64,000 nt of DNA from Bacteroidota bacterium (GCA_020444515.1 JAHLKX010000003.1:512997-576996), one strand, 5' to 3'; positions 26,485 to 57,859 are shown, counted from the first letter of the stretch. Notes: generated by a model not told the origin, from the letters alone. Program-made: numbers and translations.

Positions 26485-27537
26485 TCAGGCGGGATCAAAA
26501 TACCGCTTTTTAAACCGTAAAGCTACATTAACCAGCGAGATCAATACAGGCACCTCCACCAGCGGGCCAATCACGGCAGCAAAGGCCTCTCCTGAGTTGA
26601 TCCCGAAAACAGCCACTGCCACGGCGATGGCCAGTTCAAAATTGTTACTGGCAGCGGTAAAAGCGATGGTTGCTGATTTGCTGTAATCTGCTCCAATTTT
26701 TTTGCCCATGAAGAAGCTCACCAGGAACATGATGATGAAATAAATGATCAAGGGTATAGCAATCCGCACCACATCCAAAGGTAGTTGAACGATATATTCA
26801 CCTTTTAGAGAAAACATAACCAGAATGGTAAACAGCAGAGCAATCAATGTAATGGGACTGATCTTCGGGACAAATTTAGTGTGATACCATTCCTTATTTT
26901 TTATCCTGATCAAAATAAATCTTGTCAAAAATCCGGCAATAAAAGGAATTCCAAGATATATAAACACACTTTCAGCAATCTGACCCATGGTAATGCTTTT
27001 TACGACATCAGTGGTTTCAATTCCAAACCAGCCAGGAAGAATAGCAATGAATACCCAGGCATAGACCGCAAAAAACAGCACCTGGAAAATGGAGTTGAAA
27101 GCGACCAGTCCGGCTGCATATTCAGTGTTTCCCTTAGCAAGTTCATTCCACACAATGACCATGGCAATGCATCGCGCCAGCCCGATCAGAATAAGGCCGT
27201 ACATGTAATGCGGATAATTATGCAGGAAAAGGATGGCAAGTGCGAACATCAACACTGGCCCAATGATCCAGTTTTGAACCAGGCTCAGACCAAGAATTTT
27301 GACATTTTTAAAAACCAGGGGCAATTCTTCATACTTCACTTTGGCCAGCGGCGGATACATCATCAGGATCAGTCCAATAGCAATAGGGATGTTGGTGGTA
27401 CCCACACTCATTTTATCCCAAAATCCAGCAATGGATGGAAAAAAATAACCCGAGAAAACTCCGACTAACATCGCCGAAAAGATCCAAACCGTTAAATAAC
27501 GATCCAGGAAGGACAGGCGTTTCGTAAGTTTCGTCAT
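26485..27537 (-). CDS. acr3: ACR3-family arsenite efflux transporter
   Basis: 10-TM protein. Signature [15 protein letters not shown] with the conserved Cys. [23 protein letters not shown]. Confidence 0.92.
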
Positions 27538-27550
27538 AACCTTATTTTTG

Positions 27551-27630
27551 GAACGCGGATGACACAGATCATGCAGATTTCCGCTGATTTCAATCGTCGC
27601 TGATCTGTATAATCCGCGTCATGTGCGTTC
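27551..27630 (-). repeat. Intercistronic palindromic element, copy A (80 nt) between arsM and acr3
   Basis: Sense strand: GAACGCACATGAC...AATCAGCGGAAATCTG...GTCATCCGCGTTC. The terminal arms pair (6+5 bp), as does an inner 8-bp ACAGATCA/TGATCTGT. Its first G is the last base of the arsM TAG stop. Confidence 0.8.
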
Positions 27631-28430
27631 TATTTAACAGCGAATACAGTAATACTATAAATCCCGGTATCACCCGCTTTAAATTCAGCAAGTTCCTCTT
27701 TGGAAAGATATTTCGAAAGTATTTCATCCGGTAAAATGATCTCCTTCTCTTTTCGGATTTGAATGTTTTTGAACCCCGATTTTTCAATGATACCAAGATA
27801 CTCCTCTTTTTGTAAGGAACCTGAAACGCAGCCGGCATACATCTCAGCATCCTTAATTAATGCATCCGGAAGATCACCCGACAACACAATATCACTCACA
27901 CAAAAATGACCACCTGGTTTAATTACGCTGTGCATGCGGGAGAAAGCCTTTTCCTTATCGGGCACAAGGTTTAAAACACAATTGCTGATAATCACATCAG
28001 CAAGGTCATTTTCAAATGGCATCTCTTCGATGTCGCCTTTCACAAATTCCACATTGGTGAATCCAAGTTTAGCCACATTGTTTTTGGCTTTGGTAAGCAT
28101 GGCTCCCGCAAAATCAAGACCGATCACCCGGCCTGATTCGCCCACAATGGAACGGGCCACAAAAGCATCATTTCCAGCTCCGGAACCAAGATCGATAACA
28201 GTATCACCTTCCGAAATTTCGGCATGCTCGGTGGGCAGGCCGCATCCAAGGCCCAGATCGGCATCCTTACTGTAACCTTTCACTTCGGTGTAATCATCGC
28301 TCATGATGGTATAATCCATATCGCCGCATCCGCAGGTGCTGCCACAACAGGAAGATTGGTTTTGTTCTTTCGACTGTAAAGCAATTTCGTTGTATTTGCT
28401 TCTTACTACGTCTTTTAGTCTTTCATTCAT
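27630..28430 (-). CDS. arsM: Arsenite S-adenosylmethionine methyltransferase
   Basis: N-terminal SCCGSTCGCG. LGLGCGLP. SAM motif VIDLGSGAGND. ISNCVLNLVP. YAGCVSGSL. All four conserved Cys contexts are present. ATG 28430 (MNERLKD) is preferred because the GTG at 28451 lies inside repeat copy B. Confidence 0.92.
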   Translation of the reverse strand: MNERLKDVVRSKYNEIALQSKEQNQSSCCGSTCGCGDMDYTIMSDDYTEVKGYSKDADLGLGCGLPTEHAEISEGDTVIDLGSGAGNDAFVARSIVGESGRVIGLDFAGAMLTKAKNNVAKLGFTNVEFVKGDIEEMPFENDLADVIISNCVLNLVPDKEKAFSRMHSVIKPGGHFCVSDIVLSGDLPDALIKDAEMYAGCVSGSLQKEEYLGIIEKSGFKNIQIRKEKEIILPDEILSKYLSKEELAEFKAGDTGIYSITVFAVK

Positions 28431-28445
28431 TGCGCTAATATTTTG

Positions 28446-28523
28446 GAACACAGATGACGCTGATTAAACAGATTTTCGCTGATTGATTGGCAATTATCCA
28501 CCCGAATTGTTTCATCGGTGTTC
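28446..28523 (-). repeat. Intercistronic palindromic element, copy B (78 nt) between arsC and arsM
   Basis: Sense strand: GAACACCGATGA...AATCAGCGAAAATCTG...TCATCTGTGTTC. The terminal arms pair at 11/12 positions. Its first G is the last base of the arsC TAG stop. It shares the core and termini with copy A. Confidence 0.8.
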
Positions 28524-28936
28524 TATTTGATTCTAAAATAAAATTCCTTAAAAGCTTTGTTAATCTGATCCCGCACTTTCCGATAAACGGGAAGGATTTC
28601 CTTTTCCGATCCCCTGGCTTTTGCAGGATCTTCGAAACCAATATGCAGTCTGTTTTTTACAATCCCGGTGAAAACGGGGCAAACTTCTCTGGCCCCATCG
28701 CATACTGTGATCACAAAATCAAAACTTTCAGCTAGATACTTCTCAACAGATTCGGGTACCTGCCTGGAAATATCAACACCCACTTCTTTCATAACGTTGA
28801 CTGCATAAGGATTTACTTTATCTTCTGCAGCCGTTCCGGCAGAGAAGACTTCAAGCTTTGGATCGAAGGACTTCAGAAATCCTTCAGCCATCTGGCTGCG
28901 ACAGGTATTGCCGGTGCATATAATGAGAATCTTCAT
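28523..28936 (-). CDS. arsC: Arsenate reductase, LMW-PTP/thioredoxin-coupled type
   Basis: P-loop CTGNTCRSQMAEG plus downstream VITVCDGAREVCP (pI258-type Cys triad). Confidence 0.92.
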   Translation of the reverse strand: MKILIICTGNTCRSQMAEGFLKSFDPKLEVFSAGTAAEDKVNPYAVNVMKEVGVDISRQVPESVEKYLAESFDFVITVCDGAREVCPVFTGIVKNRLHIGFEDPAKARGSEKEILPVYRKVRDQINKAFKEFYFRIK

Positions 28937-28937
28937 C

Positions 28938-29273
28938 TTATTCGCAATTTAAGGGTCCGCAACAATCCATGGTATGAATTAGCTTTTCCATGGAGGTTTT
29001 CAATTTTAACAATATTTCGGGATTCAGACAATAATTGGTTTTGATCCCTGAAATATGTCCCTGGATCAGACCGGATTTCTTGAGTTCGTTGAGATGCTGG
29101 TTCACCGTAGTCCTTCCCAGCGGGATCTCCTGAGAAATATCTCCGGTAAAACAACTATTGGTCTCTGCCAGGAAGTTGAGAATGGCCAGCCGGGCCGGGT
29201 GTCCCAGGGCTTTAAATAAAACTGCACTATCCTGAAGATCCGTTTCAAAGAGTTCGGTTTTCGCTGTTGGCAT
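28938..29273 (-). CDS. arsR: ArsR/SmtB-family metalloregulator with a C-terminal Cys cluster
   Basis: wHTH LGHPARLAILNFL...TVNQHLNELKKSGLI. No CVC motif in helix 3. C-terminal DCCGPLNC (C104, C105, C110). Confidence 0.88.
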   Translation of the reverse strand: MPTAKTELFETDLQDSAVLFKALGHPARLAILNFLAETNSCFTGDISQEIPLGRTTVNQHLNELKKSGLIQGHISGIKTNYCLNPEILLKLKTSMEKLIHTMDCCGPLNCE

Positions 29274-29294
29274 CCTGTTAAATTTTTAATCCGG

Positions 29295-29338
29295 CGTAAA
29301 ACTACGTCAAAAAAATTAAATCGACGTATTTTTACGTT
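29295..29338. promoter_or_regulatory. Cluster of overlapping TACG/ACGT-cored palindromes upstream of arsR (candidate operator)
   Basis: CGTA-AAAC-TACG. TACGTC-N14-GACGTA (29303-29328). ACGTA-TTTT-TACGT. Located 22-65 nt upstream of the arsR ATG. Confidence 0.35.
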
Positions 29339-29370
29339 AATTTTAATAAATTGTCAATAAAATGATCAAT

Positions 29371-30075
29371 TTATGAAAGAAAGAATATGGTTATGAAATA
29401 GATCCCAACACCAATAAAAATAATTGCAACCACCCTTCGAAACCACTTTTCAAATGCGACTAAATTATTATAAAAATTACCAACCCCGCTCACTGAAAAG
29501 GCCAGTAGCCATGCAATAATGATCACTGGCAGACCGGTAGCCAGGGCAAAGATCATGGGTAGTAGTAATCCATCCGGACTGGCAATGGTGATGGGAATGA
29601 GCATGCCAAAATAGAGTACGCCGCTGTAAGGACAAAAAGCCAAAGCAAATATGATTCCAAGCAGGAGAGCGGCAAGAAATGAACCAGCCTTAAATTTCCC
29701 TGATATCTTCTGACTCAAATTTCCGAATGATGGAAAATTGATCGAAATGATGTCCAGCGAAAGGATTCCCGCAATGATCAGAAGTGGACCAAGGATCCTT
29801 TCACCATATGTCTGAAAAAAACGTGCTATCTGAAATTTGCTTGCCCCGAAATATAAGATCAACCCCAGGGTGGTATAACTGATCCCACGTCCGAGGGTAT
29901 AGATCAACCCGTTATAGAATATCTTCCTTTTGGCAGCAATATCTTTACTGATATAAGCCGTTGCCGTAATATTGGCAGCCAGCGGGCAGGGACTGATCGC
30001 GGTCATCAGGCCTAAAACGAAAGCAGTGATAAAAGGTGTTGGGGATGAATCGATGATCTGCTGCAGTACGTCCAC
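29371..30075 (-). CDS. CcdA/DsbD-like transmembrane thiol:disulfide electron transporter
   Basis: 6 TM segments. Cys-Pro motifs AISPCPLAAN and LAFCPYSG. GTG start immediately after the upstream TAG. Confidence 0.8.
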   Translation of the reverse strand: MDVLQQIIDSSPTPFITAFVLGLMTAISPCPLAANITATAYISKDIAAKRKIFYNGLIYTLGRGISYTTLGLILYFGASKFQIARFFQTYGERILGPLLIIAGILSLDIISINFPSFGNLSQKISGKFKAGSFLAALLLGIIFALAFCPYSGVLYFGMLIPITIASPDGLLLPMIFALATGLPVIIIAWLLAFSVSGVGNFYNNLVAFEKWFRRVVAIIFIGVGIYFITIFFLS

Positions 30076-30495
30076 CTAATTCAGCATTTTCTCAATATTG
30101 CTTTTCAATCCTTCCATAAACTTGTCGGGATGGGTTCGTGCATTTGAAAAAGCAAAGTCCGTAAAGTTTTCAACTTGCTCTTTACCTTCAACTACCTTAA
30201 CAAGCATCAGAGTTGATCCCCAAATTTCGTATTTTTCAACGATGGATTTATTTTCATCATCTTCTGCATTCAGCAATAAGAGTTTAATTTCTCCGCTATC
30301 CATCATCTCTTTGAAATTGGTTTCCAGCGTTTCTCTGGTTTTCGTCTCAATGGCGTTACAAGTGGCGCAACGATGCGTGTTGTGGAAATAATAGACCATT
30401 AAAGGATTTTCAACTGTATTTTGAGCAAAAGATTGAAGAGGATGCATAACAATACCCGCAAGTATTATTAGAAAAAGGGTTAATATTTTTTTCAT
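30076..30495 (-). CDS. Secreted thioredoxin-fold protein with a CxxC (CATC) motif
   Basis: Signal peptide. YFHNTHRCATCNAIE. ATGA overlap with the upstream gene. Confidence 0.65.
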   Translation of the reverse strand: MKKILTLFLIILAGIVMHPLQSFAQNTVENPLMVYYFHNTHRCATCNAIETKTRETLETNFKEMMDSGEIKLLLLNAEDDENKSIVEKYEIWGSTLMLVKVVEGKEQVENFTDFAFSNARTHPDKFMEGLKSNIEKMLN

Positions 30496-30758
30496 ATTTT
30501 CTGGTTTTTATTGTCAATAAATGGGGTGATTAATTTCATGATCTCTTTTTTCCCGGCAATCCTGCCCGAATGAACGACCTTTTCATCAATTACCAGTGCT
30601 GGTGTTGACATCACACCATAATGTAAAATATCATTGATGATATCCACTTTGGTAATAGCTGCGTCAATACCAAGCATCTTTACCGCTATTCTGACGGACT
30701 CCTCCATCTTTTTACATTTGGGACATCCGGGCCCGAGTACTTTGATTTCCATGATCAC
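30492..30758 (-). CDS. Small thioredoxin/glutaredoxin-like protein (redox-active disulfide protein 2 type)
   Basis: 88 aa. KVLGPGCPKCKK near the N-terminus and TPALVIDEKVV at the C-terminal side. Confidence 0.8.
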   Translation of the reverse strand: MIMEIKVLGPGCPKCKKMEESVRIAVKMLGIDAAITKVDIINDILHYGVMSTPALVIDEKVVHSGRIAGKKEIMKLITPFIDNKNQKI

Positions 30759-34006: not shown

Positions 34007-36424
34007 ATGCGTCAATCCTTTATAGTTCCCTCTGTAATATTGCTTGTTACCATCACATTTGTTTCATGCGACTTTCAATCCAAATCTAAAGCATCCAAAA
34101 ACGATTATCCCATTACACCTGTTCCATTCACCGATGTTCATTTGCAGGATGATTTCTGGCTACCCCGCATCCTGAAAAACACTGAAGTGACCATTCCCAT
34201 TGCTTTCGGCCAGAGTGAAGAGACAGGTCGGATCAAAAATTTCGAGGTGGCAGGTGGTCTAACCGAAGGAACCTTCTGTACCAAATACGCTTTCGACGAT
34301 TCTGATGTGTTCAAGATCATTGAAGGAGCATCTTATTCCTTGATGATCAAACCCGATCCCCACCTGGAAGCCTACCTCGACTCGCTGATCACCAAAATAG
34401 CAGCCGCCCAGGAACCCGATGGATACCTATACACCAACCGCACCATCCTTGGTGATAGCGCCTATGAAATGGCCGGGCCCGAACGTTGGTCGAAAGTAAG
34501 CGAGCACAGCCATGAGCTATACAATGCTGGGCACATGTATGAAGCAGCAGTGGCTTATTACCAGGCCACCGGCAAACGAACTTTTTTGGATATTGCCATA
34601 AAAAATGCCAATCTGATCGACCGGGAATTCGGGTGGGGAAAGATCGAAAAGTATCCCGGTCACCAGGAGATAGAGATCGGACTGGTGAAACTCTATCGGG
34701 TTACAGGAGATAAACGGTACCTTGAACTGGCCAAATTTTTCCTTGATGTACGCGGCCCCGAAGGCTGGGAATACAACCAGGCCCATCAAAAATCGGTTGA
34801 TCAGCGGGAACCGGTAGGCCATGCTGTAAGGGCATTGTACATGTATTCGGCCATGGCAGACATCGCAGCGTTGACCGGAGATACTGCCTATCTGAATGCC
34901 ATCGAATCCCTTTGGAGAAACCTGGTAAATAAAAAGGTCTATGTGACCGGAGGTGTCGGGCAAAGCGGCGGAAACGAAGGTTTTGGACCGGATTACGAGT
35001 TGCCCAACATGTCAGCTTATTGTGAGACCTGCGCTTCCATTGCCAATGTATTCTGGAATCAGCGCATGTTTTTACTAAGTGGTGATTCCAGATACATCGA
35101 TGTGCTGGAACGGACACTTTACAATGCCCTTCTGTCGGGAGTCTCCATCGAGGGAAATCTTTTCTTTTACCCCAACAGGCTTGAATCCAATGGTAACGAT
35201 CGCCGGCAGGAATGGTTCGGTTGCGCCTGCTGTCCTTCCAATATCAGCCGTTTTCTTCCATCGGTTCCGGGCTATATATATGCAAAAAAGGAAGATCACA
35301 TTTATATCAACCTGTTTATTAATTCCGATGTCGATCTTAAAACAGATAAAGGAAATTTCAACCTCAGCCAACACAGTGGTTACCCATGGAAAGGGAATAT
35401 CCGGGTTGTGGTAAATCCTGAAACAGATATGGCTCAAACGATCCATATCCGAATCCCTGGTTGGTCTCAAAATAAACCCATACCCGGAAATCTTTACCAC
35501 TATCACCGCATGATAGAGTCAAAACCAGTTATGAAAGTCAATGGTAAGGAAACAGACTATGAAACTGAAAAAGGATACCTGATCATTACTCGGACCTGGA
35601 AGGTAAACGACCAGTTGGAAGTCGAATTTGAAATGCCGGTGCGGAAAACGCTTGCCCTTGATTCTGTTAAGGCCGATCGCGGGCGGTTTACCATTGAGCG
35701 GGGCCCGCTGGTATACTGTATCGAAGATGTCGATCAACAACAATCCGGGGTCCGGCATATTGTTGCCGATATCGACGGAAAATTCACGGATAGAACATCC
35801 AGGGACCTGTGGGGCGGTATCACCACCATCGGTTTTGAAGGCCGGTTATTGCAGAGACAGATCGACGGATCTGTACAATCAGAGGGTGGGCCTGTGCAAC
35901 TTACGGCCATTCCATATGCGTTTTGGGCGAACCGAGAACCGGGCCAGATGCTGGTCTGGGTCCCTTACCGAAAAGAAAATGCAACACCAGCGCCCGCTCT
36001 TACCATTGCCTTTAAAAGCCATAAGATTTGCCCGGGTGCAAAGGGTAATCCTGAATTGCTTTCTGATCAATATAATCCGGTCAATTCCAATGATCATAGC
36101 ATGGGATATATCCACTGGTGGCCTATTAAAGATACCATCGTGACCATGGAATACGATTTTGAAAAACCTGGTACAGTATCATCAACCCGGGTTTACTGGT
36201 TTGATGACGGCCCGCATGGGGGTTGCCGGATCCCTGCGGCCTGGAAACTTTTGTACCGAAAAGGAAATCAATGGATAGAGGTTGAGCATGATTTACCTTA
36301 TCCCGTCACAAAGGATGCCTTCGATGTGGTTGATTTCAATCCGGCCAGAACGGACGCCGTGAAAATGGAAATCACCCTGCAAAAGGAATATAGCAGTGGT
36401 GTTCATGAGTGGGTATTGAATTAA
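34007..36424 (+). CDS. Glycoside hydrolase family 127 (beta-L-arabinofuranosidase-like, DUF1680) lipoprotein
   Basis: Lipobox FVSC. HELYNAGHMYEAAVAYY. AYCETCAS and GCACCPSN (the Glu/Cys zinc and catalytic Cys contexts of GH127). Confidence 0.88.
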   Translation: MRQSFIVPSVILLVTITFVSCDFQSKSKASKNDYPITPVPFTDVHLQDDFWLPRILKNTEVTIPIAFGQSEETGRIKNFEVAGGLTEGTFCTKYAFDDSDVFKIIEGASYSLMIKPDPHLEAYLDSLITKIAAAQEPDGYLYTNRTILGDSAYEMAGPERWSKVSEHSHELYNAGHMYEAAVAYYQATGKRTFLDIAIKNANLIDREFGWGKIEKYPGHQEIEIGLVKLYRVTGDKRYLELAKFFLDVRGPEGWEYNQAHQKSVDQREPVGHAVRALYMYSAMADIAALTGDTAYLNAIESLWRNLVNKKVYVTGGVGQSGGNEGFGPDYELPNMSAYCETCASIANVFWNQRMFLLSGDSRYIDVLERTLYNALLSGVSIEGNLFFYPNRLESNGNDRRQEWFGCACCPSNISRFLPSVPGYIYAKKEDHIYINLFINSDVDLKTDKGNFNLSQHSGYPWKGNIRVVVNPETDMAQTIHIRIPGWSQNKPIPGNLYHYHRMIESKPVMKVNGKETDYETEKGYLIITRTWKVNDQLEVEFEMPVRKTLALDSVKADRGRFTIERGPLVYCIEDVDQQQSGVRHIVADIDGKFTDRTSRDLWGGITTIGFEGRLLQRQIDGSVQSEGGPVQLTAIPYAFWANREPGQMLVWVPYRKENATPAPALTIAFKSHKICPGAKGNPELLSDQYNPVNSNDHSMGYIHWWPIKDTIVTMEYDFEKPGTVSSTRVYWFDDGPHGGCRIPAAWKLLYRKGNQWIEVEHDLPYPVTKDAFDVVDFNPARTDAVKMEITLQKEYSSGVHEWVLN

Positions 36425-36444: not shown

Positions 36445-37140
36445 TTACCCCGTGTCGCTAATCCTTTGCAACCGCTCGAAATCAAGGATATGAAGGTTTT
36501 TACCTTCCATACGGATGAGGCCGTCATCATTGAATTTTTTTAACATCCTGATCACGGTTTCGGAACTCATACCCGATAACTCTGCCAGATCTTTCCGTGA
36601 CAAAGGCAAATGAAATTCAGATTGTTTGAAAATCCTTTCCGACAGGCAAAGGAGAATATCTGCCAATCTTCCGTAGGCCTGTTTATGGGTCAGGCAAAAA
36701 AACCGACCGTAAACCTGCACACTGTTGGCACTGAAGATATCGATCACTTCTTTGGAGAAATCGGCATTCTGTTTAAGTAGCTGTCGAAAAGTACTAATGT
36801 TAATTTGACGGATTTCTGTATCAATATAAGCCATGGCCGAATACTGGTAGGTGTTGTGATCTTCAGAAAGTGAGGATAAACCCAGCAAATTACCTTCAGG
36901 GATCATTTTAAGTACCAGTGAATTGGATCCATTGTCCAGGAATACCTTCACCAGTCCTTTTTCAACATACATCACATGAGAAACAAAACTTCCCTGTTTG
37001 CAGATGATCTCCTTCTTCTTGTATGTGATTACCACGGAATTCTCATTCAGGATTTTCATCTCCTCACTGGTGAGCTTCTCAAAACACCGACATTGTCTTG
37101 AGCTGATTGTACATGCGGAAATCTGTATCCTGTTCGGCAT
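36445..37140 (-). CDS. Crp/Fnr-family transcriptional regulator with an N-terminal Cys cluster
   Basis: cNMP-binding-like beta-roll (ICKQGSFVSHVMYVEKGLVKV). C-terminal HTH SRKDLAELSGMSSETVIRMLK. N-terminal C10, C17, C19. Confidence 0.85.
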   Translation of the reverse strand: MPNRIQISACTISSRQCRCFEKLTSEEMKILNENSVVITYKKKEIICKQGSFVSHVMYVEKGLVKVFLDNGSNSLVLKMIPEGNLLGLSSLSEDHNTYQYSAMAYIDTEIRQINISTFRQLLKQNADFSKEVIDIFSANSVQVYGRFFCLTHKQAYGRLADILLCLSERIFKQSEFHLPLSRKDLAELSGMSSETVIRMLKKFNDDGLIRMEGKNLHILDFERLQRISDTG

Positions 37141-37161
37141 ATTGACTTAGAATTGATTTTG

Positions 37162-37169
37162 CAAATTTA
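37162..37169 (-). promoter_or_regulatory. -7 promoter box TAAATTTG for the Crp/Fnr gene
   Basis: Plus-strand CAAATTTA, 22 nt upstream of the start at 37140. Confidence 0.4.
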
Positions 37170-37337
37170 GTAAAAAATATCACTTAAAAACATGACCTGG
37201 ATCAGTAAATTATAGAGTTCAGAACAGCTTGATACAGAATGCATGACAGCTCAATTTTTTTGTTGATATCATCCAAATAGACAATCTTTGTTGTGAAGTA
37301 ATTAACAGTAATTAAACAATTGAAATACACACTGATA

Positions 37338-38705
37338 ATGAATACAAAAAAGAACTTTCTAGCTGCGATGATCCTTATTTTTTCGGTGCTTGCTATCTTT
37401 ATCGGTAATGGGTGTTCCGATAACAACGATGATCCGGATCCAACACCGACCGTAAAAAATTATGCATCCTGTGAGGGTTGTCACACCGATTATGCCCATT
37501 TGCAACAGGTATATACACCCGACACTTCAGCACCTTCTGGTGGTTGTGGCGGAGAAGCCCCACACTATGAGCCTTATGACAGGGTTTACATGGGTGGAGC
37601 GGGGTATGAAGATTATAAACAATCGGGACACTACGATATCGGTTGTGTGGGATGTCACAATGGTGTGGATAATACAGAGGATAAAGCAACAGCACATTCC
37701 GGAGATTTCATTCGGCATCCATCCATGTTTGCAGAAGAAAAATGTGCGTCCTGTCATCAATCAATCGTTGATGATTTTGAGACAAATCTCCACCATGGCA
37801 CGGGCCAAAAACGGAAGGTTACGATGAGGAGCGGGCTGGCCGGACCACAAGAATTCGATCAGCTTCCTGCTCATCAAATTGAAGGGTACAACGCCAACTG
37901 TGCTACCTGCCATGCCAGTTGTGGAGAGTGTCATATTGTTCGTCCTTTATCGGGTGGTGGTGGACTGGCGGCAGGACACGCTTTCACCAAAACACCGGAC
38001 ATGGTAAATGTTTGTGTTACGTGCCACGTATCACGTGGAGGACATGCCTATCTGGGCGTAGCTGCCGGAACCGAACCGGATGTTCATCTCACTTCGTTGA
38101 ACTTTCAATGTATTGATTGTCACGACAGTGAGGAAATCCATGGCGATGGTCAGCCTGTTGAGCAACGTTACGCTTACTCAAAATTACCTAAATGTATTGA
38201 TTGTCATGAAGACGCTGCAAAAAGCAATAATTACCACAGTATGCACATCAACGATTTCAACTGCCAGGTTTGTCACTCGCAAGATTACAATAACTGCGGC
38301 AGTTGCCATATTCATGGTGACGGAGCACGGATCCCTGCCTACCTCGATTACAAGATTGCGCTGAACCCACTCACTGATCTGAAACCCGATATTGAATATG
38401 CCACTGTTCGACGGGCGCCTGGTGCTCCTGATAATTGGGATGTATATGGTGTTGATTATTCAAATTTTGATGTATTTCCTACCTATAATTATACCTCTGC
38501 TCACAACATCCTCCGCTGGACAACCAGAACTGAAACCGGCGACAAGGCATGTTTTTCCAATTGTCATATCCGCAATGAAGGTGGAATATTGATCAACAAA
38601 GAATTGTACCTTTTCCTGGAAGACCTGGAAGATTGGGAAGTTAGTGCCAATGAAAGCATTGTGGTAGATGATGCACTGCCAGCATCCTGGTTTGAAGAAA
38701 AATAA
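37338..38705 (+). CDS. Multiheme c-type cytochrome lipoprotein (10 CxxCH + 1 CxxxCH)
   Basis: Signal peptide ending in GNGC followed by SDNNDDPD. Heme motifs CEGCH, CVGCH, CASCH, CATCH, CGECH, CVTCH, CIDCH, CIDCH, CQVCH, CGSCH plus CFSNCH. ATG 37338 is preferred over the TTG at 37320. Confidence 0.9.
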   Translation: MNTKKNFLAAMILIFSVLAIFIGNGCSDNNDDPDPTPTVKNYASCEGCHTDYAHLQQVYTPDTSAPSGGCGGEAPHYEPYDRVYMGGAGYEDYKQSGHYDIGCVGCHNGVDNTEDKATAHSGDFIRHPSMFAEEKCASCHQSIVDDFETNLHHGTGQKRKVTMRSGLAGPQEFDQLPAHQIEGYNANCATCHASCGECHIVRPLSGGGGLAAGHAFTKTPDMVNVCVTCHVSRGGHAYLGVAAGTEPDVHLTSLNFQCIDCHDSEEIHGDGQPVEQRYAYSKLPKCIDCHEDAAKSNNYHSMHINDFNCQVCHSQDYNNCGSCHIHGDGARIPAYLDYKIALNPLTDLKPDIEYATVRRAPGAPDNWDVYGVDYSNFDVFPTYNYTSAHNILRWTTRTETGDKACFSNCHIRNEGGILINKELYLFLEDLEDWEVSANESIVVDDALPASWFEEK

Positions 38706-38754
38706 GACAAAAACAAGTGAAATATAATAATTAAACAACTTTAAATTTTATTCT

Positions 38755-39768
38755 ATGAAAAACACAAAATTGTATTGGTTAAGCATTTTGTTTGCTTTCC
38801 TTTTCCTCACGGCTTGTAATAAAGATGAAGACGAGCCAACACCTACGCCGCAGATTAATGAATCCGAGGTACTTGCTACATTCCTCGAATCTACATCGTC
38901 ACCATTGATGAAAGATTTTGTCAATACAGACATGCCAACCATTATGCCGGCCAGTGAAGTGAAAACACTCAATGCTACCGGACAGGTTTATATCATTGAT
39001 ATCCGTTCAGCAGATGATTTCAATACTTTGGGCCATATTGAAAATGCACACAATGTTGCATTTGGTGACCTGATTACCCATGTTGCGGGAATCAATATGG
39101 ACGATTACACCAAAGTGGCCATTGTATGCTACAGTGGACAAACAGCAGGATATGCAGCCAGCATTCTGAGGCTTATGGGTTACGATAAAGTATTTTCGAT
39201 GAAATGGGGAATGTGTTCATGGCATGAAGATTTTGCAGGTAGCTGGAGTAATGCTGTGGCTAATGGAAATGCTTATGCTACACAATTCACTTCCGATCCT
39301 ACAGATAAAGGACCCAGTGGAGATATGCCCACCCTTTCTACTGGAAAAACGGATGGCTTATCCATCCTGGAAGCCCGGGTTGATGCTGTTATTGCTGAAG
39401 GATTTGACCCGGCCAAAATTTCAAACTCAACAGTATTTGGTAACCTGAATAACTATTACATTGTAAATTACTGGCCTGCATCGCACTATGAAACCCCTGG
39501 TCACATTCCAGGTGCAATGCAATACACTCCCAAAGAGTCGATTAAAACAACAGCCGACCTGAAAACTTTACCAACAGATAAAACCATTGTTGTGTATTGT
39601 TATACTGGTCAAACCAGTGCATTCTTAACAGCCTATCTTCGTTTGTTGGGTTATGATGCTAAGTCATTATTGTTTGGAACAAATGGTATGATTTACGACA
39701 TGATGGTAGACGAAGGCCTCACCACTTTCAATGATGAGCAGATCATGGGCTACGACTACGTAAATTAG
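38755..39768 (+). CDS. Lipoprotein with two rhodanese (sulfurtransferase) domains, each with an active-site Cys
   Basis: Lipobox LTAC followed by NKDEDE. Two rhodanese domains with loops VCYSGQTAG and YCYTGQTSA (GlpE-like CYHGNSS type). Confidence 0.85.
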   Translation: MKNTKLYWLSILFAFLFLTACNKDEDEPTPTPQINESEVLATFLESTSSPLMKDFVNTDMPTIMPASEVKTLNATGQVYIIDIRSADDFNTLGHIENAHNVAFGDLITHVAGINMDDYTKVAIVCYSGQTAGYAASILRLMGYDKVFSMKWGMCSWHEDFAGSWSNAVANGNAYATQFTSDPTDKGPSGDMPTLSTGKTDGLSILEARVDAVIAEGFDPAKISNSTVFGNLNNYYIVNYWPASHYETPGHIPGAMQYTPKESIKTTADLKTLPTDKTIVVYCYTGQTSAFLTAYLRLLGYDAKSLLFGTNGMIYDMMVDEGLTTFNDEQIMGYDYVN

Positions 39769-39792
39769 TATTTCTTTTCTCATATACAGAAA

Positions 39793-39821
39793 GGCCGTCC
39801 TCATGGGATGGTCTTTTTTTT
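39793..39821 (+). terminator. Rho-independent terminator of the cytochrome-rhodanese operon
   Basis: GGCCGTCC-TCATG-GGATGGTC (8 bp including 2 G-U) followed by T8. Confidence 0.75.
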
Positions 39822-39869: not shown

Positions 39870-40772
39870 ATGAAACGAGCCACTAAAATTGCATCAGTGT
39901 TTCTTTGCATTGCTCTTGGTGTTAACCCTTATACAAATTGGCTGTTTGCGCAACAAAATCCATTTATTGCAGGGCTGATCAATGAAGAAATTTCATATTG
40001 TGATATTGAGCCGGATTCCGTTATTCATCTTGAAACCAGCAATAGTCTTGCTGGGGGTTTGTTCGGGTTAGACCTGGATAGCGATGGCGTTTTTGACTTT
40101 GATATTTGGGTTGTGGAGAACACACATTTGGGTTGGTGGGAAAAGTATTTTTTGCTGGGCAAATATGATGAAGCACAAATATGCTTTGCTGATTCCGGAG
40201 CCTTTACGTTAAATTCAGATACTGTTGGTTATTTCCCCATTGCTAAACCCTTTTTAGTTGGAGATACTATTGAGGCAACCGGTTTTTATACTCATGATTA
40301 CACATACCTTTCGAATTTCACGCTTGATCCCTTCGGATGGAATGCCTATAATTTATACTGGAAAGGAATTGGGCCTGCCTGTGTCGGCCTGAAAATTATC
40401 AAACCAAATGAAACCATATTGGGATGGATTAGGATTGAATTACCAGAAGATGCAGGAACCGAACTCATTGTTTATGATTATGCTGTTAATAAACCCGATC
40501 TATACACCACGGTGGCTGATCCTTTAAACCCTTTTTTTCAAATCTCCCCCAATCCGGTGGATGGCATTTTAATGATCAGTACACAGCTACATGATCATTT
40601 AAATGGATCTTCTTTTCAGGTTTATGATTTGTCGGGACAAATACATTTGTTGCCCTTTTTTAAAGGCCACGGGAGATGGAGCCTTTGCACAGAAAAACTG
40701 CATCCAGGCATGTATGTCCTGGAAATCAAAAACCAGCATACCATTGAAAGATATAAGTTCATTAAAATGTAG
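39870..40772 (+). CDS. Secreted protein of unknown function with a T9SS C-terminal sorting domain
   Basis: Signal peptide. C-terminus ISPNPVDGILMIS...FQVYDLSGQ...LHPGMYVLEIKN...RYKFIKM. Confidence 0.75.
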   Translation: MKRATKIASVFLCIALGVNPYTNWLFAQQNPFIAGLINEEISYCDIEPDSVIHLETSNSLAGGLFGLDLDSDGVFDFDIWVVENTHLGWWEKYFLLGKYDEAQICFADSGAFTLNSDTVGYFPIAKPFLVGDTIEATGFYTHDYTYLSNFTLDPFGWNAYNLYWKGIGPACVGLKIIKPNETILGWIRIELPEDAGTELIVYDYAVNKPDLYTTVADPLNPFFQISPNPVDGILMISTQLHDHLNGSSFQVYDLSGQIHLLPFFKGHGRWSLCTEKLHPGMYVLEIKNQHTIERYKFIKM

Positions 40773-42316: not shown

Positions 42317-45229
42317 ATGAAGATATGTCTTAGATTTTTTACTTCTTTCGTTTTCATTTTTTTGATTTTTTCATCGAGCCTATTTGCTGCCTGGATCGAT
42401 AAAATCCCCCAAACCGTTGTTCAACCTGACGGTTCCGTTATTTCCTGTTTTGCCACAGGTGATGAATTTTGGAACTGGCTGCACGATGAGAATGGATTCA
42501 CCATCATTCAAAATCATGACGATGGGTATTATTACTATGCCATACTTATGAGTGACCAGCTTCTTCCCTCATCCTATCGGGTTGATTCGATTGATCCTGC
42601 TGACGCTGGCCTTTCACCCTGGACGAATATTTCGGCAGAAAAGATGATGGCGATTCGTACAGATTTTCTAAAAAATAAAATGCCTGAGAAAAAGGCTATT
42701 CCAGGTTTTAATGCACCTGAGAATGTACAAAATGAAGGCGTGTTGAATAACCTGGTCGTTTACATCCGATTCAGCGATCAATCGGAATATTCGGCCGATA
42801 CCGTTTTTTACCATAACATGTTCAACAATAACAATTCGGACTATAACTCCATGCTGAATTATTTTGAAACGGTATCATATGATAAAATTTCCATTCCTTC
42901 ATGGTTTTACCCGATATCTGAAGTTGAAACCGTAATTTCATATCAGGACATATATCCCAGGGGCTATTTCATGCCTTATGATCCGGTGACCAATCCACAG
43001 GGATATCAATCCGGTCAAAGCGGCGAAAGGGAGCATGCATTGCTGGAAAGAGCCTGTAACTATATTGAAGATGAAGTTCCTGTCACACTCAACATTGATA
43101 AAGACAATGATGGATATGTCGACAATATGGTTTTTATCATCAGGGGTGCAACAACAGCGTGGGGAACTTTACTTTGGCCACACAGGTGGGCGCTTTATAA
43201 CGAAAATGTTTACATTCATGGTAAGCGCGTTTGGGATTATAACCTCCAGGTTGAGGATCATCTCAATGGACAGGGTGCTGGCGTTCTTTGCCATGAAATG
43301 TTTCACAGCCTCAGTGCACCGGATCTCTATCACTATAATTCAGCACCCTTCTCATCAGTCGGGCCCTGGGACCTGATGGATGCTGCCGGTAATCCTCCCC
43401 AATCCATGGGAGCTTACATGAAATACCGCTATGGTGGCTGGATTGATCAAATCCCGGAAATTACAGAATGCGGCTCCTATGAACTAAATCCCTTGTCGGA
43501 AAGTGAGAATAATTGTTTTAAAATCGCCTCGCCAAACAGTGCTTCAGAATATTACGTGCTAGAATACAGGGTAAAAGAAGGAACTTTTGAGGGGGTGATT
43601 CCCGGAAGCGGATTGCTTGTATACCGAATTGACAATAATCAAAACGGCAATGGCAATGCGCAGGGACCACCCGATGAAGTTTACGTATACCGCCCTGATG
43701 GGAACATTTATGCTAATGGTAGTCTTGATCAGGCCCATTTTGCTGCTGATTATGGGCGAACGGAGATCAATGACAACACAAACCCTGCCCCTTTTCTCCA
43801 AAACGGTTCTCCCGGGGGCTTGATCATTTCTAATGTCGGATATACCGGAGAGACCATTTCTTTTGATGTATATTTTGAGAAGGAACCCGTAGCCGAATAT
43901 TCATCCTCTGAGACCCTGGTTTCCATCGGCTGTCCTGTTGATTTTACAGATGAATCATTGTGTGCCGTGGATAGCTGGGAGTGGACCTTTGAGAATGCCA
44001 CTCCTGCAACCTCCAATGAACAAAATCCCCAGGGTATTATTTGGAACAATCCTGGCACCTATACAGTAAGCCTCACCGTGACCAATAGCTGGGGCTCCGA
44101 TATGGAAACCAAAACCGGATACATTGAGGTGAGTGACGAAGCATTACCCAATGTTGTTTTTTACGCTTCAGATTCTATCGTCTGCACAGGACAGGTTGTA
44201 CAGTTCACTGATTATTCTGAAGTATGTCCACTGGGATGGAACTGGCAGGTGAGTCCTTCTTCTTTTGAGTTTGTAAACGGAACCGGAGCTGATTCTCAAA
44301 ATCCGGAAATTATATTCAACGAGCCCATCGAATATACCATTGCTTTAACCGCAAGCAATGTCAATGGCCAATCGATGCTGGAAAAGTCAAACTATATTAA
44401 GGCAGGAGGAAACCTGGTTGACTATACAGAAGACTTTGAATCGGGTTCTTTTGAGTCTGCAGGTTGGACGGTAAACAACCCCGATGATGGCATCACCTGG
44501 GAAATTACGGATAATTCAAGCCAGGGCGGGAACTTTTCTGCCTGGATCAATCTGTTTGAATATTTCAGTATTTTTAAACGGGATCAACTCATCAGCCCAC
44601 CTTTCGACCTATCCAATCAGGGAGCAGTTATACTCGTTTTCGATCATGCTTATGCCCAGGCTGGCAATCTGACCTATTCAGACTCACTGATCGTAAAAAT
44701 ATCAGATGATTGTGGTCAGACATGGACCCGCATTGCTGAAATGGCTGAGGATGGTTCCGGTAATTTCGCCACCCATGAGCCCTACACCTTTAATTTCATA
44801 CCACAAGTTCAGGAAGATTGGTGCGGCCCCGGTGAATGGGCCCAGTGTCAAACAATCGACATATCTTCATGGGCCGGCAATGAAGATGTCAGGATTATGT
44901 TTGAATCCGTTCGTTTGACAGGAAATAACTTGTTTTTGGATAATATTGGGTTATACATTCCGGAGGATATCGCGCTTCACATGTCACCCAAAAATGAGCA
45001 AATTCACATTTATCCCAATCCCTCGAAAGGAATGGTTTATTTGAATATTCCACAATCATATCAAAATTCAACATTCACCTTGTATAACGTCATGGGAAAA
45101 GCTATCCGATCAGGAAAACTAAATAAAAACAATTTCACGATGGACCTGGCTAGTGAAAAACGAGGATTATATTTTTTACATGTCTTCGGCGAAACGTATC
45201 ATGAGGTGAAAAAGATCATTGTGGAATAG
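42317..45229 (+). CDS. Secreted M6-like zinc metalloprotease with two PKD-like domains, a MAM/lectin-like domain and a T9SS C-terminal domain
   Basis: HEMFHSL zinc motif. PKD-like VDFTDES..WEWTFE..PGTYTVSLTVTN and VQFTDYS..WNWQV. EDFESGSFESAGWTV. CTD IYPNPSKGMVYLN...RGLYFLHVF...KKIIVE. Confidence 0.8.
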   Translation: MKICLRFFTSFVFIFLIFSSSLFAAWIDKIPQTVVQPDGSVISCFATGDEFWNWLHDENGFTIIQNHDDGYYYYAILMSDQLLPSSYRVDSIDPADAGLSPWTNISAEKMMAIRTDFLKNKMPEKKAIPGFNAPENVQNEGVLNNLVVYIRFSDQSEYSADTVFYHNMFNNNNSDYNSMLNYFETVSYDKISIPSWFYPISEVETVISYQDIYPRGYFMPYDPVTNPQGYQSGQSGEREHALLERACNYIEDEVPVTLNIDKDNDGYVDNMVFIIRGATTAWGTLLWPHRWALYNENVYIHGKRVWDYNLQVEDHLNGQGAGVLCHEMFHSLSAPDLYHYNSAPFSSVGPWDLMDAAGNPPQSMGAYMKYRYGGWIDQIPEITECGSYELNPLSESENNCFKIASPNSASEYYVLEYRVKEGTFEGVIPGSGLLVYRIDNNQNGNGNAQGPPDEVYVYRPDGNIYANGSLDQAHFAADYGRTEINDNTNPAPFLQNGSPGGLIISNVGYTGETISFDVYFEKEPVAEYSSSETLVSIGCPVDFTDESLCAVDSWEWTFENATPATSNEQNPQGIIWNNPGTYTVSLTVTNSWGSDMETKTGYIEVSDEALPNVVFYASDSIVCTGQVVQFTDYSEVCPLGWNWQVSPSSFEFVNGTGADSQNPEIIFNEPIEYTIALTASNVNGQSMLEKSNYIKAGGNLVDYTEDFESGSFESAGWTVNNPDDGITWEITDNSSQGGNFSAWINLFEYFSIFKRDQLISPPFDLSNQGAVILVFDHAYAQAGNLTYSDSLIVKISDDCGQTWTRIAEMAEDGSGNFATHEPYTFNFIPQVQEDWCGPGEWAQCQTIDISSWAGNEDVRIMFESVRLTGNNLFLDNIGLYIPEDIALHMSPKNEQIHIYPNPSKGMVYLNIPQSYQNSTFTLYNVMGKAIRSGKLNKNNFTMDLASEKRGLYFLHVFGETYHEVKKIIVE

Positions 45230-56248: not shown

Positions 56249-57859
56249 ATGAATTTGGACTTTACATATAAATCATTTAAAAATTTAAGATTGCTACTCC
56301 CAATCTCATTGGTCATGATTGGAATTCTCATCCAATTTCCAAAATGTGTATCCAGCCAGGGTTATATGGGCAAGAATAAAGTATTTCTGATCGGACAGGT
56401 TGTAAATGAGCTCAATGGGGCCCCTATTAAAGGACATAAGCTTATCATTGAAGCCGATTCAACCCATGAACCAAGTTTCAATTATTATAAGGTCGTATAT
56501 ACAGATGATGAGGGCTATTACTATGATACCATTCAGACTTATAACCTGAAAGGATCACTTATCGTCAGCACGAATGATTACCAGAATATTACTTATGATA
56601 CAACGATATTCTACAGGTTTAACTGGAGTGAAGATAATATTATTTTTGCCAATTTTGCTTTACCTACTGCACCAATACCGGTCATTTACCAGGCCAATTT
56701 TTACTATGTGCGCAATCCGAATGGTAACAATGAACAAGAGTATAAATTTATTGACATTACCAATTCACAGGATATCATTTCATATGAATGGGATTTCGGC
56801 GATGGAACAATTTCTCATGAGCAAAATCCAACCCATATTTTTGCCAGTCCGGGTTTAAACCGCGTTTCGCTTAAGGTTGAAATACAATCCTCCCCTACAA
56901 GCAAGCCTTATATTTCAAACCTCGTTAAAGTGATCAATGTTACTTTTACTAATTATTTTCATATGGGAGGACATGTTTTTACCGGATATTTCCCCATTGA
57001 TATTGGCCACGCCTATTTATACAAAATCGAGAACAATGAATTGATTTTAATTGATACCGCCATCTTTAATGATTCACTCGGCTTCTATTTATTCTATCAG
57101 CTTATTGAAGGAGATTATCTTGTCAAAGCTGATTTGGATCCCTCTTCCGAATTTTTTAATGTCTTCATGTGTACTTATTATGGCAATAAACTGCATTGGA
57201 CTGAAGCCGATACCATTCATCATCAATCCACTTCTTTTGAATATGATATCAACCTGATGCCGAATGAAAAAAGCATGGCCGGACCAGGACTGCTCGCAGG
57301 AAATATTAATTATGTATCAGGCGGTGACGAAATTATTTCACCTGCGGAAAACATCAGTATTATTTTATACGACAGTGACAACAATGCTATAGATATTTGC
57401 CATTCCAATGAAAACGGTCAGTTTGAACTGGAAGACCTGGATATGAATATCTATTATTTGTTTGCCGAGGTCACAGGTAAATATACAGTACCTCTGTATG
57501 TTGAATTGAATGGAACCAATACTTCTGTTACCAAAATTGAATTTGCCATCAATGAAAATACTGTTACCGGAACCATTGGCTATGCATCGGTACATGAAAA
57601 TGACTTTGATTTAAGTTTTGATCATGTTTATCCCAACCCTGTGCATAATTTTGCAAAAATTGATCATCATTTACAGGATGGATCCCAACTCCAGGTATCG
57701 ATAATCGATGCTTCTGGCAGAACCGTGTACACAAAAAATATTGAAAATCAACCATTCAATGAAAGCATTAGGATTCCCGTTTCATCCATACCTCCAGGAA
57801 TCTATTTCATGAGGATATCGGGAAAAGATGGGATTGTCACGCGAAAATTTATAAAGTAA
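56249..57859 (+). CDS. Secreted PKD-domain protein with a T9SS C-terminal sorting domain
   Basis: PKD-like YEWDFGDGTISHEQNPTHIFASPGLNRVSLKV. CTD VYPNPVHNFAKI...PGIYFMRISGKDGIVTRKFIK. Confidence 0.78.
   Translation: MNLDFTYKSFKNLRLLLPISLVMIGILIQFPKCVSSQGYMGKNKVFLIGQVVNELNGAPIKGHKLIIEADSTHEPSFNYYKVVYTDDEGYYYDTIQTYNLKGSLIVSTNDYQNITYDTTIFYRFNWSEDNIIFANFALPTAPIPVIYQANFYYVRNPNGNNEQEYKFIDITNSQDIISYEWDFGDGTISHEQNPTHIFASPGLNRVSLKVEIQSSPTSKPYISNLVKVINVTFTNYFHMGGHVFTGYFPIDIGHAYLYKIENNELILIDTAIFNDSLGFYLFYQLIEGDYLVKADLDPSSEFFNVFMCTYYGNKLHWTEADTIHHQSTSFEYDINLMPNEKSMAGPGLLAGNINYVSGGDEIISPAENISIILYDSDNNAIDICHSNENGQFELEDLDMNIYYLFAEVTGKYTVPLYVELNGTNTSVTKIEFAINENTVTGTIGYASVHENDFDLSFDHVYPNPVHNFAKIDHHLQDGSQLQVSIIDASGRTVYTKNIENQPFNESIRIPVSSIPPGIYFMRISGKDGIVTRKFIK

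Follow-up and report, generated by a model that had tools for sequence, protein, structure and literature searches.

A cytochrome–rhodanese cassette of a Bacteroidota bacterium: apparent cysteine form of a widespread, predicted Sec/Cys undecaheme system

The question raised by positions 36,445 to 39,821 of the stretch of Bacteroidota DNA analysed here (the window, 64,000 nucleotides in full) is what chemistry could bring together a multiheme c-type cytochrome, a tandem-rhodanese lipoprotein and a divergently encoded Crp/Fnr-type regulator, and whether any known system already accounts for such a set. An earlier note on this DNA had proposed an uncharacterised sulfur/selenium system of Bacteroidota. 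It was found that the locus lies outside any characterised family, and that its cytochrome appears to be the cysteine (Cys) type member of a widespread, apparently undescribed undecaheme cytochrome–rhodanese system with either selenocysteine (Sec) or Cys at one site. A role in sulfur or selenium chemistry is still the best reading; the restriction to Bacteroidota was not borne out, the system being spread, as judged from its homologues, over more than ten phyla. The three genes, and the sites of the cytochrome on which the argument turns, are the following.

36445-37140, minus strand: gene for the Crp/Fnr-family regulator, 231 aa (open reading frame map; Pfam cNMP_binding and HTH_Crp_2)
37338-38705, plus strand: gene for the cytochrome lipoprotein, 455 aa counted from the ATG; ten CxxCH motifs, one CFSNCH
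37413-37415, plus strand: codon of the lipobox Cys26, the lipidated mature N-terminus of the cytochrome, invariant in alignment A1
37545-37547, plus strand: TGT codon of Cys70 in GGCGG (G68-G69-C70-G71-G72), the position of a predicted selenocysteine (UGA) in homologues
38550-38567, plus strand: CFSNCH, a CX3CH variant motif for heme 11 at residue 405, its Cys, Cys and His columns invariant in alignment A2
38755-39768, plus strand: gene for the tandem-rhodanese lipoprotein, 337 aa (Pfam Rhodanese, two stretches, E = 4e-28)

The cytochrome and its Sec/Cys site

The decisive feature, which the earlier note had missed, is Cys70 in the GGCGG segment, the Cys counterpart of a predicted Sec. It is the one cysteine of the mature protein that belongs neither to a heme motif nor to the lipobox, it is invariant in the 40 orthologues of alignment A1, and its loop, G-U/C-G-G, follows heme motif 1 and precedes heme motif 2. 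When 1.84 billion cluster representatives were searched with a profile, 574 relatives were obtained, many of which apparently begin near 'MAPLEPWEKV' and match the query from position 72 onward. In the DNA upstream of such relatives a short open reading frame (ORF) for a signal peptide and the first CxxCH is interrupted by an in-frame TGA, after which comes the called gene, as in '...SGSG*GGAVAPLEPWEKV' and '...QAGKG*GGSVAPLELWEKV'; the corresponding segment of the window reads '...PSGGC70GGEAPHYEPYDRV'. The in-frame TGA was present in 146 of 163 homologous loci from more than ten other phyla, namely 78 of the 83 from a subfamily in which cytochrome and rhodanese are fused and 68 of the 80 from the wider family. 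The in-frame stop at this site was always TGA, never TAA or TAG, and always lay within xG-*-GG ([AS/E]G-U-GG), with conserved flanks: on the 5' side the signal peptide and heme 1, on the 3' side hemes 2-11.

The 60 nt beginning with the TGA were analysed, and in the Sec forms a hairpin resembling a selenocysteine insertion sequence (SECIS) was found, having a 7-bp helix that starts 12 nt after the UGA and a CGUUG loop. Pairing was observed in 92.9% of cells and compensatory changes in five of the seven pairs, values reached by none of 500 shuffles; among these changes are synonymous ones, such as GAG to GAA opposite GCU to GUU. Since an in-frame TGA is followed by a hairpin with compensatory changes, the TGA-bearing homologues are predicted selenoproteins. 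The SECIS-like hairpin is absent at the Cys70 site of the window, and a Cys codon (TGC or TGT) occupies the site in all 83 evaluable Bacteroidales loci, as well as in 7 of the 80 wider-family loci (Bacteroidetes/Bacteroidota, Ignavibacteria and one Actinomycetota). The homologues thus combine the standard marks of a selenoprotein family, that is, a conserved in-frame UGA, a downstream stem-loop and Cys in other lineages, and the window protein is therefore regarded as the Cys form, with Cys70 marking a redox-active residue.

The gene calls of the Sec-type members are split at the UGA (L085-L247; e.g. L085:7791-9920 and L087:7752-9947) into a 66-76-aa 'hypothetical' ORF, which carries the signal peptide and heme 1, and a main ORF beginning just past the Sec codon, for which NCBI gives the name 'rhodanese-like domain-containing protein' or 'hypothetical protein'. 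This would be a systematic annotation error in hundreds of genomes.

The count of eleven hemes follows from the ORF map and a motif count, both of which agree with the protein length and motifs given in the earlier note, and from alignment A2: the CX3CH motif aligns with an ordinary CxxCH in the wider family, so that the eleventh heme is considered real. An AlphaFold2 model built on a diverse alignment was confident (predicted local distance difference test, pLDDT, 89.5; predicted TM score, pTM, 0.82), the one from a shallow alignment of sequences 66-83% identical being discarded at pLDDT 43. In the accepted model heme 11 is carried by a small beta-rich C-terminal domain, and the GGCGG segment forms a hairpin tip of lower confidence in an otherwise confident structure, which is compatible with a mobile arm bearing Cys70.

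No Pfam or NCBIfam model covers the cytochrome family. The window cytochrome gave sub-threshold generic multiheme matches only, and at E <= 0.1 the NCBIfam matches were TIGR04315 (octaheme tetrathionate reductase, OTR) and NrfB models alone; the score against TIGR04315 was 22.5 bits, the cut-off being 375 bits. In the NCBIfam scan the ExtKL model NF040886 matched neither the window cytochrome nor a reconstructed Sec-type fusion. The family-model checks that had been proposed for ExtKL and OTR leave the protein outside both. A Foldseek search of a PDB library extending to 2026-04-08 returned, as its first and sole credible match, OTR of Shewanella (1sp3; E = 2.9e-3, probability 0.99, TM 0.30, root-mean-square deviation 6.6, 298 columns, 17% identity), and a PDB profile search likewise gave OTR alone (E = 0.02). 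The single-sequence search of the PDB matched the lipoprotein signal peptide only; the signal peptide and N-terminus encoded at 37338-37450 (…CSDNNDDPDP) are close to those of 8b6a, a crystallised 'conserved hypothetical lipoprotein' (…CSDNNSPDDPS), whose localisation might therefore bear on the export signal. In the openly accessible literature no description was found of a multiheme–rhodanese or GUGG selenoprotein family beyond MccSep, discussed below, and general selenoproteome reviews. A 2026 catalogue of prokaryotic selenoprotein families lists ExtKL, a GSU2204 family and a Sec-containing OTR family, and nothing resembling the present one.

The cassette, its partner protein and its surroundings

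Close homologues of the cytochrome number more than 1000. The best 120 share 66-83% identity and measure 431-496 aa, with most near 450 aa, and nearly all those named by organism come from Bacteroidales metagenome-assembled genomes (MAGs). A genome scan placed its relatives in 417 species-level genomes. The adjacency of cytochrome and rhodanese, which the earlier note had wished to see checked, is conserved: a rhodanese orthologue lies downstream of the cytochrome in 82 of 84 loci, and in 76 of about 78 Bacteroidales loci that could be evaluated the Crp/Fnr gene is divergent and upstream. When all flanking ORFs were clustered, no further gene proved common to more than 10 of 85 loci, and since the flanks are otherwise unshared the three genes form a self-contained module; their recurrence amid unrelated flanks (76-82 of 84 loci) is far beyond chance.

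The remaining features of the cassette belong to the operator, the rhodanese and the end of the operon.

37192-37205, no strand assigned: Crp/Fnr-type palindromic operator ATGACCTGGATCAG (family consensus YTGAT-N4-ATCAR)
38815-38835, plus strand: mature N-terminus of the rhodanese, C-N-K-D-E-D-E, matching the Bacteroidota lipoprotein export signal
39127-39144, plus strand: active-site loop of rhodanese domain 1, C125-Y-S-G-Q-T (Cys in 81/82 Bacteroidales and 31/31 other-phylum partners)
39598-39615, plus strand: active-site loop of rhodanese domain 2, C282-Y-T-G-Q-T (Cys in 77/77 aligned Bacteroidales and 31/31 other-phylum partners)
39788-39821, plus strand: intrinsic terminator, hairpin and U-run, closing the two-gene operon (-17.9 kcal/mol)

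The spacer between cytochrome and rhodanese is 49 nt, and the two Pfam stretches together with the terminator hairpin sustain the picture of a tandem rhodanese that ends the operon. The terminator was not detected by a consensus scan and was confirmed by direct folding (z = -3.72; none of 200 shuffles equalled it). In both rhodanese domains the active-site loop has the consensus C-Y-[TS]-G-[QH]-T, and domain 1 matches the Wolinella Sud chain 1qxn with E = 1e-6. Both proteins are lipoproteins, as had been claimed, for their signal peptides end in a Cys kept in every orthologue examined (82/82 for the cytochrome; 82/82 for the rhodanese, and 30/31 of its counterparts from other phyla).

The regulator has the domain architecture of the FNR type and a TTGAT-N4-ATCAA-like operator, and scores 50.6 bits against the Fnr model NF008365, for which the cut-off is 228. 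The N-terminal cysteines noticed earlier (C10, C17 and C19) are conserved, as are C47, C149 and C165, each being kept in 69-76 of 76 orthologues. A TGAY-N4-RTCA core occurs in 64 of 76 orthologous regulator–cytochrome intergenic regions, 1.8 being expected, and mostly lies 241-340 nt before the codon of the first heme motif, the distance in the window being 278 nt. It was this relaxed core that found the conserved operator; a strict FNR-consensus scan picked a spurious site in the window and was rejected. The conserved operator supports control of the operon, its predicted target, by the adjacent regulator. E. coli FNR shares with it the Crp/Fnr fold, an N-terminal cysteine cluster and an operator of similar form, and differs in cysteine spacing (C-X2-C-X5-C plus C122, against C10-X6-C17-X-C19) and in the ends of the operator, the consensus of the cassette starting with C/T and ending with G/A. 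Induction by low oxygen, which the earlier note had considered probable, is thus a weak point of its reading.

The locus search for the wider family was built on alignment A6, which replaced the too divergent A5, and extended the family to at least 581 species-level genomes from Calditrichota, KSB1, Gemmatimonadota, Cloacimonadota, Krumholzibacteriota, Eisenbacteria, Phycisphaerae, Chloroflexota, Ignavibacteria and Bacteroidota. In 63 of 80 other-phylum loci (Calditrichota, Chloroflexota, Gemmatimonadota and others) an orthologue of the window rhodanese stands beside the cytochrome on the same strand. Cytochrome and two C-terminal rhodanese domains are fused in P0158 (652 aa) and P0192 (715 aa), the subfamily of such fusions comprising 125 species-level genomes (Desulfobulbaceae, Desulfobacterales, Geobacteraceae, Nitrospirota and Rokubacteria); the window cytochrome is 34% identical to the Sec-type fusion P0158 (E = 3e-56). 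In the fragment P0182 the order is reversed, the rhodanese being N-terminal to the cytochrome. The JGI name 'thiosulfate/3-mercaptopyruvate sulfurtransferase', found on unfused cytochromes, was probably propagated from fusions.

Several neighbourhoods in other lineages have features of their own. NapC/NirT is encoded beside the fusion cytochrome in 20 of 83 loci and cytochrome c3 in 11 of 83, and neighbours of the family also include NrfD in 6 loci and a 4Fe-4S protein in 11, mostly in Chloroflexota. The Chloroflexota loci L203-L247 have a divergent LysR regulator in place of Crp/Fnr (24 loci), and their Anaerolineae rhodanese, of about 565-615 aa and so with an extra domain, is non-acidic after the lipobox. 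In Calditrichota, KSB1 and Gemmatimonadota (L172-L184; e.g. L182:4343-5563 and L177:6440-7327) the pair is followed by a barrel-like protein of about 406 aa with a signal peptide and next by a multiheme cytochrome of about 295 aa, a make-up resembling ExtHIJKL; the putative barrel had no PDB sequence match and a sub-threshold OmpA match only. In one Tenuifilaceae locus (L001:4232-8981) the cassette abuts genes for a class-V aminotransferase of cysteine desulfurase type, TusA, Se_S_carrier, a SelD-like AIRS protein and an NTP_transf_3 protein, with NrfD, 4Fe-4S, cytochrome b and multiheme genes on the downstream side. This selenium-utilisation neighbourhood was set aside as a functional lead, being seen in that locus alone and not conserved across loci.

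The earlier note had assigned acidic surface-export signals to both proteins, and this is well supported for the rhodanese only. In the Bacteroidota export signal the lipidated Cys is directly followed by K-(D/E)2 at +3 to +5, or by a polar residue with acidic ones after it (PMC5080379). The rhodanese orthologues carry K at +3 in 64/82, D at +4 in 64/82 and D/E at +5 in 71/82, with C-x-K-(D/E)2 in 57/82 and two or more acidic residues at +3 to +6 in 73/82. The mature N-terminus of the window cytochrome, C-S-D-N-N-D-D-P-D, is acidic; among its orthologues K-(D/E)2 was found in 1/82, any minimal form of the signal in 7/82, two or more acidic residues at +3 to +6 in 24/82, and a net negative charge in 42/82. 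Surface exposure is thus well predicted for the rhodanese and not for the cytochrome. The fusions show both proteins working in one compartment; given the asymmetry of the export signal, either the cytochrome travels with its rhodanese partner, or the acidic motif drives no export here. The Desulfobacterota homologues are predicted to be periplasmic because they have ordinary, non-lipoprotein signal peptides.

No second CxxCH-rich ORF was found in the window, and among the Pfam-scanned flanking ORFs (several smaller ORFs left out) there was no quinol dehydrogenase, molybdoenzyme, recognisable beta-barrel or cytochrome-maturation gene, in line with what had been remarked earlier for the first three. 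The window otherwise contains GH127 and GH97 glycosidases, peptidases, type IX secretion system (T9SS) cargo proteins, sensor kinases and an ars operon. The GH127 beta-L-arabinofuranosidase gene (34007-36424) adjoins the regulator, and its G+C of 0.478, compared with a window mean of about 0.40, may reflect recent acquisition. The arsenic-resistance cluster (26485-30758, minus strand) encodes an Acr3-type (SBF) transporter, an ArsM-like S-adenosylmethionine (SAM) methyltransferase, a low-molecular-weight-phosphatase-type ArsC and ArsR, followed by a DsbD_2-family membrane protein, an unassigned 139-aa secreted protein and a Thioredoxin_3 protein. Two ORFs (39870-40772 and 56249-57859) carry the Por_Secre_tail domain for C-terminal sorting in type IX secretion, from which it follows that the host has a T9SS, and a large ORF at 42317-45229 contains an HExxH metalloprotease-like sequence.

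The proposed reaction and its alternatives

The reading favoured here, for which the chances are put a little short of even, is that the cytochrome–rhodanese pair is a sulfane-sulfur reductase acting on polysulfide or elemental sulfur (S0), the chemistry, substrate and direction of electron flow being inferred by analogy. In its favour count the conserved adjacency and the fusions of the two proteins, the Sec/Cys pair at one site, Cys70 as lone free cysteine and the conserved operator. The closest functional precedent is MccSep of Geobacter sulfurreducens, and the analogy with ExtH and ExtKL drawn in the earlier note has proved apt, for extK and extL have since been recognised as a single Sec read-through gene that encodes MccSep (GSU2937-2936), beside the gene for the rhodanese lipoprotein ExtH (PMC13510729). 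MccSep is a periplasmic pentaheme polysulfide reductase, essential for S0 respiration, which also reduces selenite (PMC13510729). The present family would combine the same ingredients in an unrelated architecture. OTR, the nearest relative by weak but consistent matches, is an S-S-cleaving enzyme, which also speaks for a reductase.

In the proposed mechanism C125 and C282 of the rhodanese would accept zero-valent sulfur, drawn from polysulfide or from species derived from S0, to form a persulfide, in the manner of Sud, and Cys70 would attack this persulfide to give a mixed S-S intermediate, which two electrons delivered through the 11-heme chain could cleave with release of sulfide. The electrons are assumed to come from menaquinol by way of a quinol dehydrogenase encoded elsewhere, so that the pair might serve a fermentative Bacteroidales cell as an external electron sink, and the regulator is assumed to turn the operon on upon a redox or sulfur signal sensed through its cysteines. 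The quinol-dehydrogenase modules linked to the family in other phyla point to a respiratory enzyme fed from the quinol pool. Circumstantial ecological support for a sulfur role comes from the S0-rich sediments of the Frasassi caves, which are dominated by Desulfocapsa, Anaerolineaceae, Lentimicrobiaceae and Prolixibacteraceae, all of them lineages carrying the family, and from two loci that derive from MAGs labelled 'SulCav'.

Several observations weigh against such a reductase. For its eleven hemes the cytochrome has nine histidines outside the motifs that are conserved family-wide. With about 4.3-4.9 kDa per heme, estimated from its length of 455 aa, the protein falls in the 'peptide-minimised' class of multiheme cytochromes, which are usually electron carriers and not enzymes (PMC7096707). 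The Bacteroidales cassette encodes no electron donor nearby, either in the 85 loci or among the window ORFs scanned, and the export signal of the rhodanese, having no counterpart on the cytochrome, suggests that the two may reside in different compartments. A minority of divergent members (P0182, P0192, P0162, P0124 and P0127) have W, Y or H at the Sec/Cys site or no loop at all, and two of them (P0182 and P0192) are rhodanese fusions, so that the Sec/Cys residue is not universally required; these members may form a functionally different subfamily. Finally, the rhodanese that Desulfobacterota carry in fused form is of another, SseA-like subfamily with an inactive first domain. The rhodanese types being separate, the cytochrome has gained a rhodanese at least twice, and this in turn strengthens the functional link between the two.

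The same components could be run in the opposite direction, with sulfide or thiosulfate being oxidised at Cys70 and the rhodanese, as in TsdA/SoxAX, and electrons passing to the quinone pool or a terminal oxidase. Rhodaneses also serve pathways of sulfide and thiosulfate oxidation, NapC/NrfD-type modules are reversible in principle, and the authors of the MccSep study themselves pointed out that a link with the TsdA/SoxAX reaction, run in reverse, is possible (PMC13510729). For the most part, however, the carriers are obligately anaerobic fermenters or organisms that reduce or disproportionate sulfur (Bacteroidales, Anaerolineae, Desulfobulbaceae), the Sec multiheme enzyme that serves as characterised precedent works reductively, and the clustering of conserved neighbours linked no oxidase or Sox genes to the cassette; oxidation is accordingly considered unlikely.

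Reduction of selenite or tellurite, either for detoxification or as a supply of reduced selenium to SelD with the rhodanese as selenium carrier, is judged distinctly unlikely. It can draw on the selenite reductase activity of MccSep, on the literature tying ExtH and ExtI to selenite uptake and reduction, and on the cysteine desulfurase, TusA, Se_S_carrier and SelD genes of the Tenuifilaceae locus; those genes, however, adjoin the cassette in that locus alone, and no cluster of non-cassette neighbours exceeds 10 of the 85 loci. Selenite is, besides, scarce relative to sulfur in the habitats of the carriers. MccSep itself favours polysulfide over selenite about sevenfold by Vmax/K0.5 (PMC13510729).

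With its lone nucleophilic Cys or Sec in a loop rich in Gly, the site is reminiscent of arms for thiol-disulfide exchange, for example the GCUG arm of thioredoxin reductase. The heme chain might, then, maintain thiols of the envelope, reducing disulfides, persulfides and polysulfide adducts on periplasmic or surface proteins by way of Cys70 and the rhodanese, as a protection in sulfidic, S0-rich settings. The regulator with its many conserved cysteines would suit this, and the mechanism of MccSep has been called conceptually similar to that of thioredoxin reductase by the authors who described it (PMC13510729). Eleven hemes, and the quinol dehydrogenases linked to the family elsewhere, nevertheless suggest respiratory flux and not repair, and no thioredoxin-fold partner is conserved, which makes such a function very unlikely.

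The least probable of all, corresponding to the metal option of the earlier note, is a surface cytochrome for extracellular electron transfer to Fe(III), Mn(IV) or electrodes with the rhodanese as an accessory. This would agree with a sub-threshold Pfam similarity to MtrC/MtrF domains II/IV (23 bits), with lipoprotein anchoring and with the putative barrel and further multiheme cytochrome after the pair in Calditrichota/KSB1 loci, but the Bacteroidales loci have no porin or periplasmic partner, the cytochrome has no conserved export signal, the Desulfobacterota homologues are predicted periplasmic, and an obligatory rhodanese and Sec/Cys residue would be purposeless in metal reduction.

With sulfane-sulfur reduction preferred, it is tempting to speculate further, and more tentatively, that the family constitutes a new class of enzymes whose 11-heme 'wire' terminates in a mobile Sec/Cys nucleophile and serves the reductive cleavage of a persulfide presented by the rhodanese, allowing molybdenum-free respiration of S0 or polysulfide, possibly also of selenite, in more than ten phyla and at least about 600 species-level genomes. 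If this were so, the enzyme would be mostly an unannotated selenoprotein, its gene calls being split at the UGA, and in Bacteroidales the rhodanese, perhaps even the whole complex, might lie on the cell surface as an electron sink for fermenters in sulfidic sediments. Molybdenum-independent sulfur reduction was linked to a multiheme selenoenzyme, MccSep, only in 2026. The present family would be a second one uniting heme chain, Sec/Cys and rhodanese, of different architecture and taxonomically much broader than MccSep, and its carriers include abundant fermenters of sediments, digesters and groundwater (Bacteroidales, Anaerolineae, Calditrichota) that are not usually counted among sulfur reducers. 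Confirmation of the function would change which organisms are credited with S0 and polysulfide turnover, would add a large selenoprotein family at present truncated at UGA by annotation pipelines, and would provide a natural Sec/Cys pair for the study of heme-driven S-S cleavage. The Cys-type Bacteroidales form should be the easiest to express because no Sec-insertion machinery is needed.

Comparison with known systems

Among electron-transfer conduits of the Mtr, Pcc and Ext types, a barrel and a periplasmic multiheme partner accompany the cytochrome. No barrel was seen among the scanned ORFs of the window, none is conserved in the 85 loci, and there is no periplasmic multiheme partner. The Bacteroidales cassette likewise has no ExtI porin. 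With ExtH it shares the basic arrangement, a rhodanese lipoprotein whose gene neighbours that of a multiheme (seleno)cytochrome, the two being contiguous or fused in most loci; among the NCBIfam matches no ExtH-named model appeared.

Sud of Wolinella succinogenes (1qxn) has, like the present rhodanese, an extracytoplasmic rhodanese fold whose catalytic Cys hands sulfane sulfur to a respiratory reductase. It is a soluble single-domain dimer that serves the molybdoenzyme PsrABC, whereas the protein described here is a two-domain lipoprotein with two active loops and a multiheme partner. TsdA and SoxAX are comparable as c-type cytochromes that use cysteine for S-S chemistry on thiosulfate and tetrathionate; they are di- or tri-heme enzymes with His/Cys ligation and are not homologous to the present cytochrome.

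OTR is the only relative detectable by profile, NCBIfam and fold, and is similar in being a periplasmic multiheme enzyme that cleaves an S-S bond. It has eight hemes against the eleven found here, and no rhodanese partner. Residues 167-237 of OTR pair with 243-311 of the cytochrome, and the extra N-terminal hemes therefore have no OTR counterpart; on this ground the identification of Cys70 with an N-terminal active-site residue of OTR was rejected.

The likeness to MccSep is the most extensive, for in both cases a multiheme c-type cytochrome with one catalytic chalcogen residue has a rhodanese-like lipoprotein as neighbour and is associated with the chemistry of sulfur and selenium, Sec-type clades occur alongside Cys-type ones, and uncultured anaerobes supply most of the members. 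The two are set apart by sequence features and by the published description of MccSep, which has five hemes, with a His/Cys-ligated catalytic heme, and a C-terminal Ig-like domain whose D-G-U-P loop bears the Sec (PMC13510729). The present family has, in place of five CxxCH motifs and D-G-U-P, eleven hemes and a Sec or Cys near the N-terminus in G-U/C-G-G.

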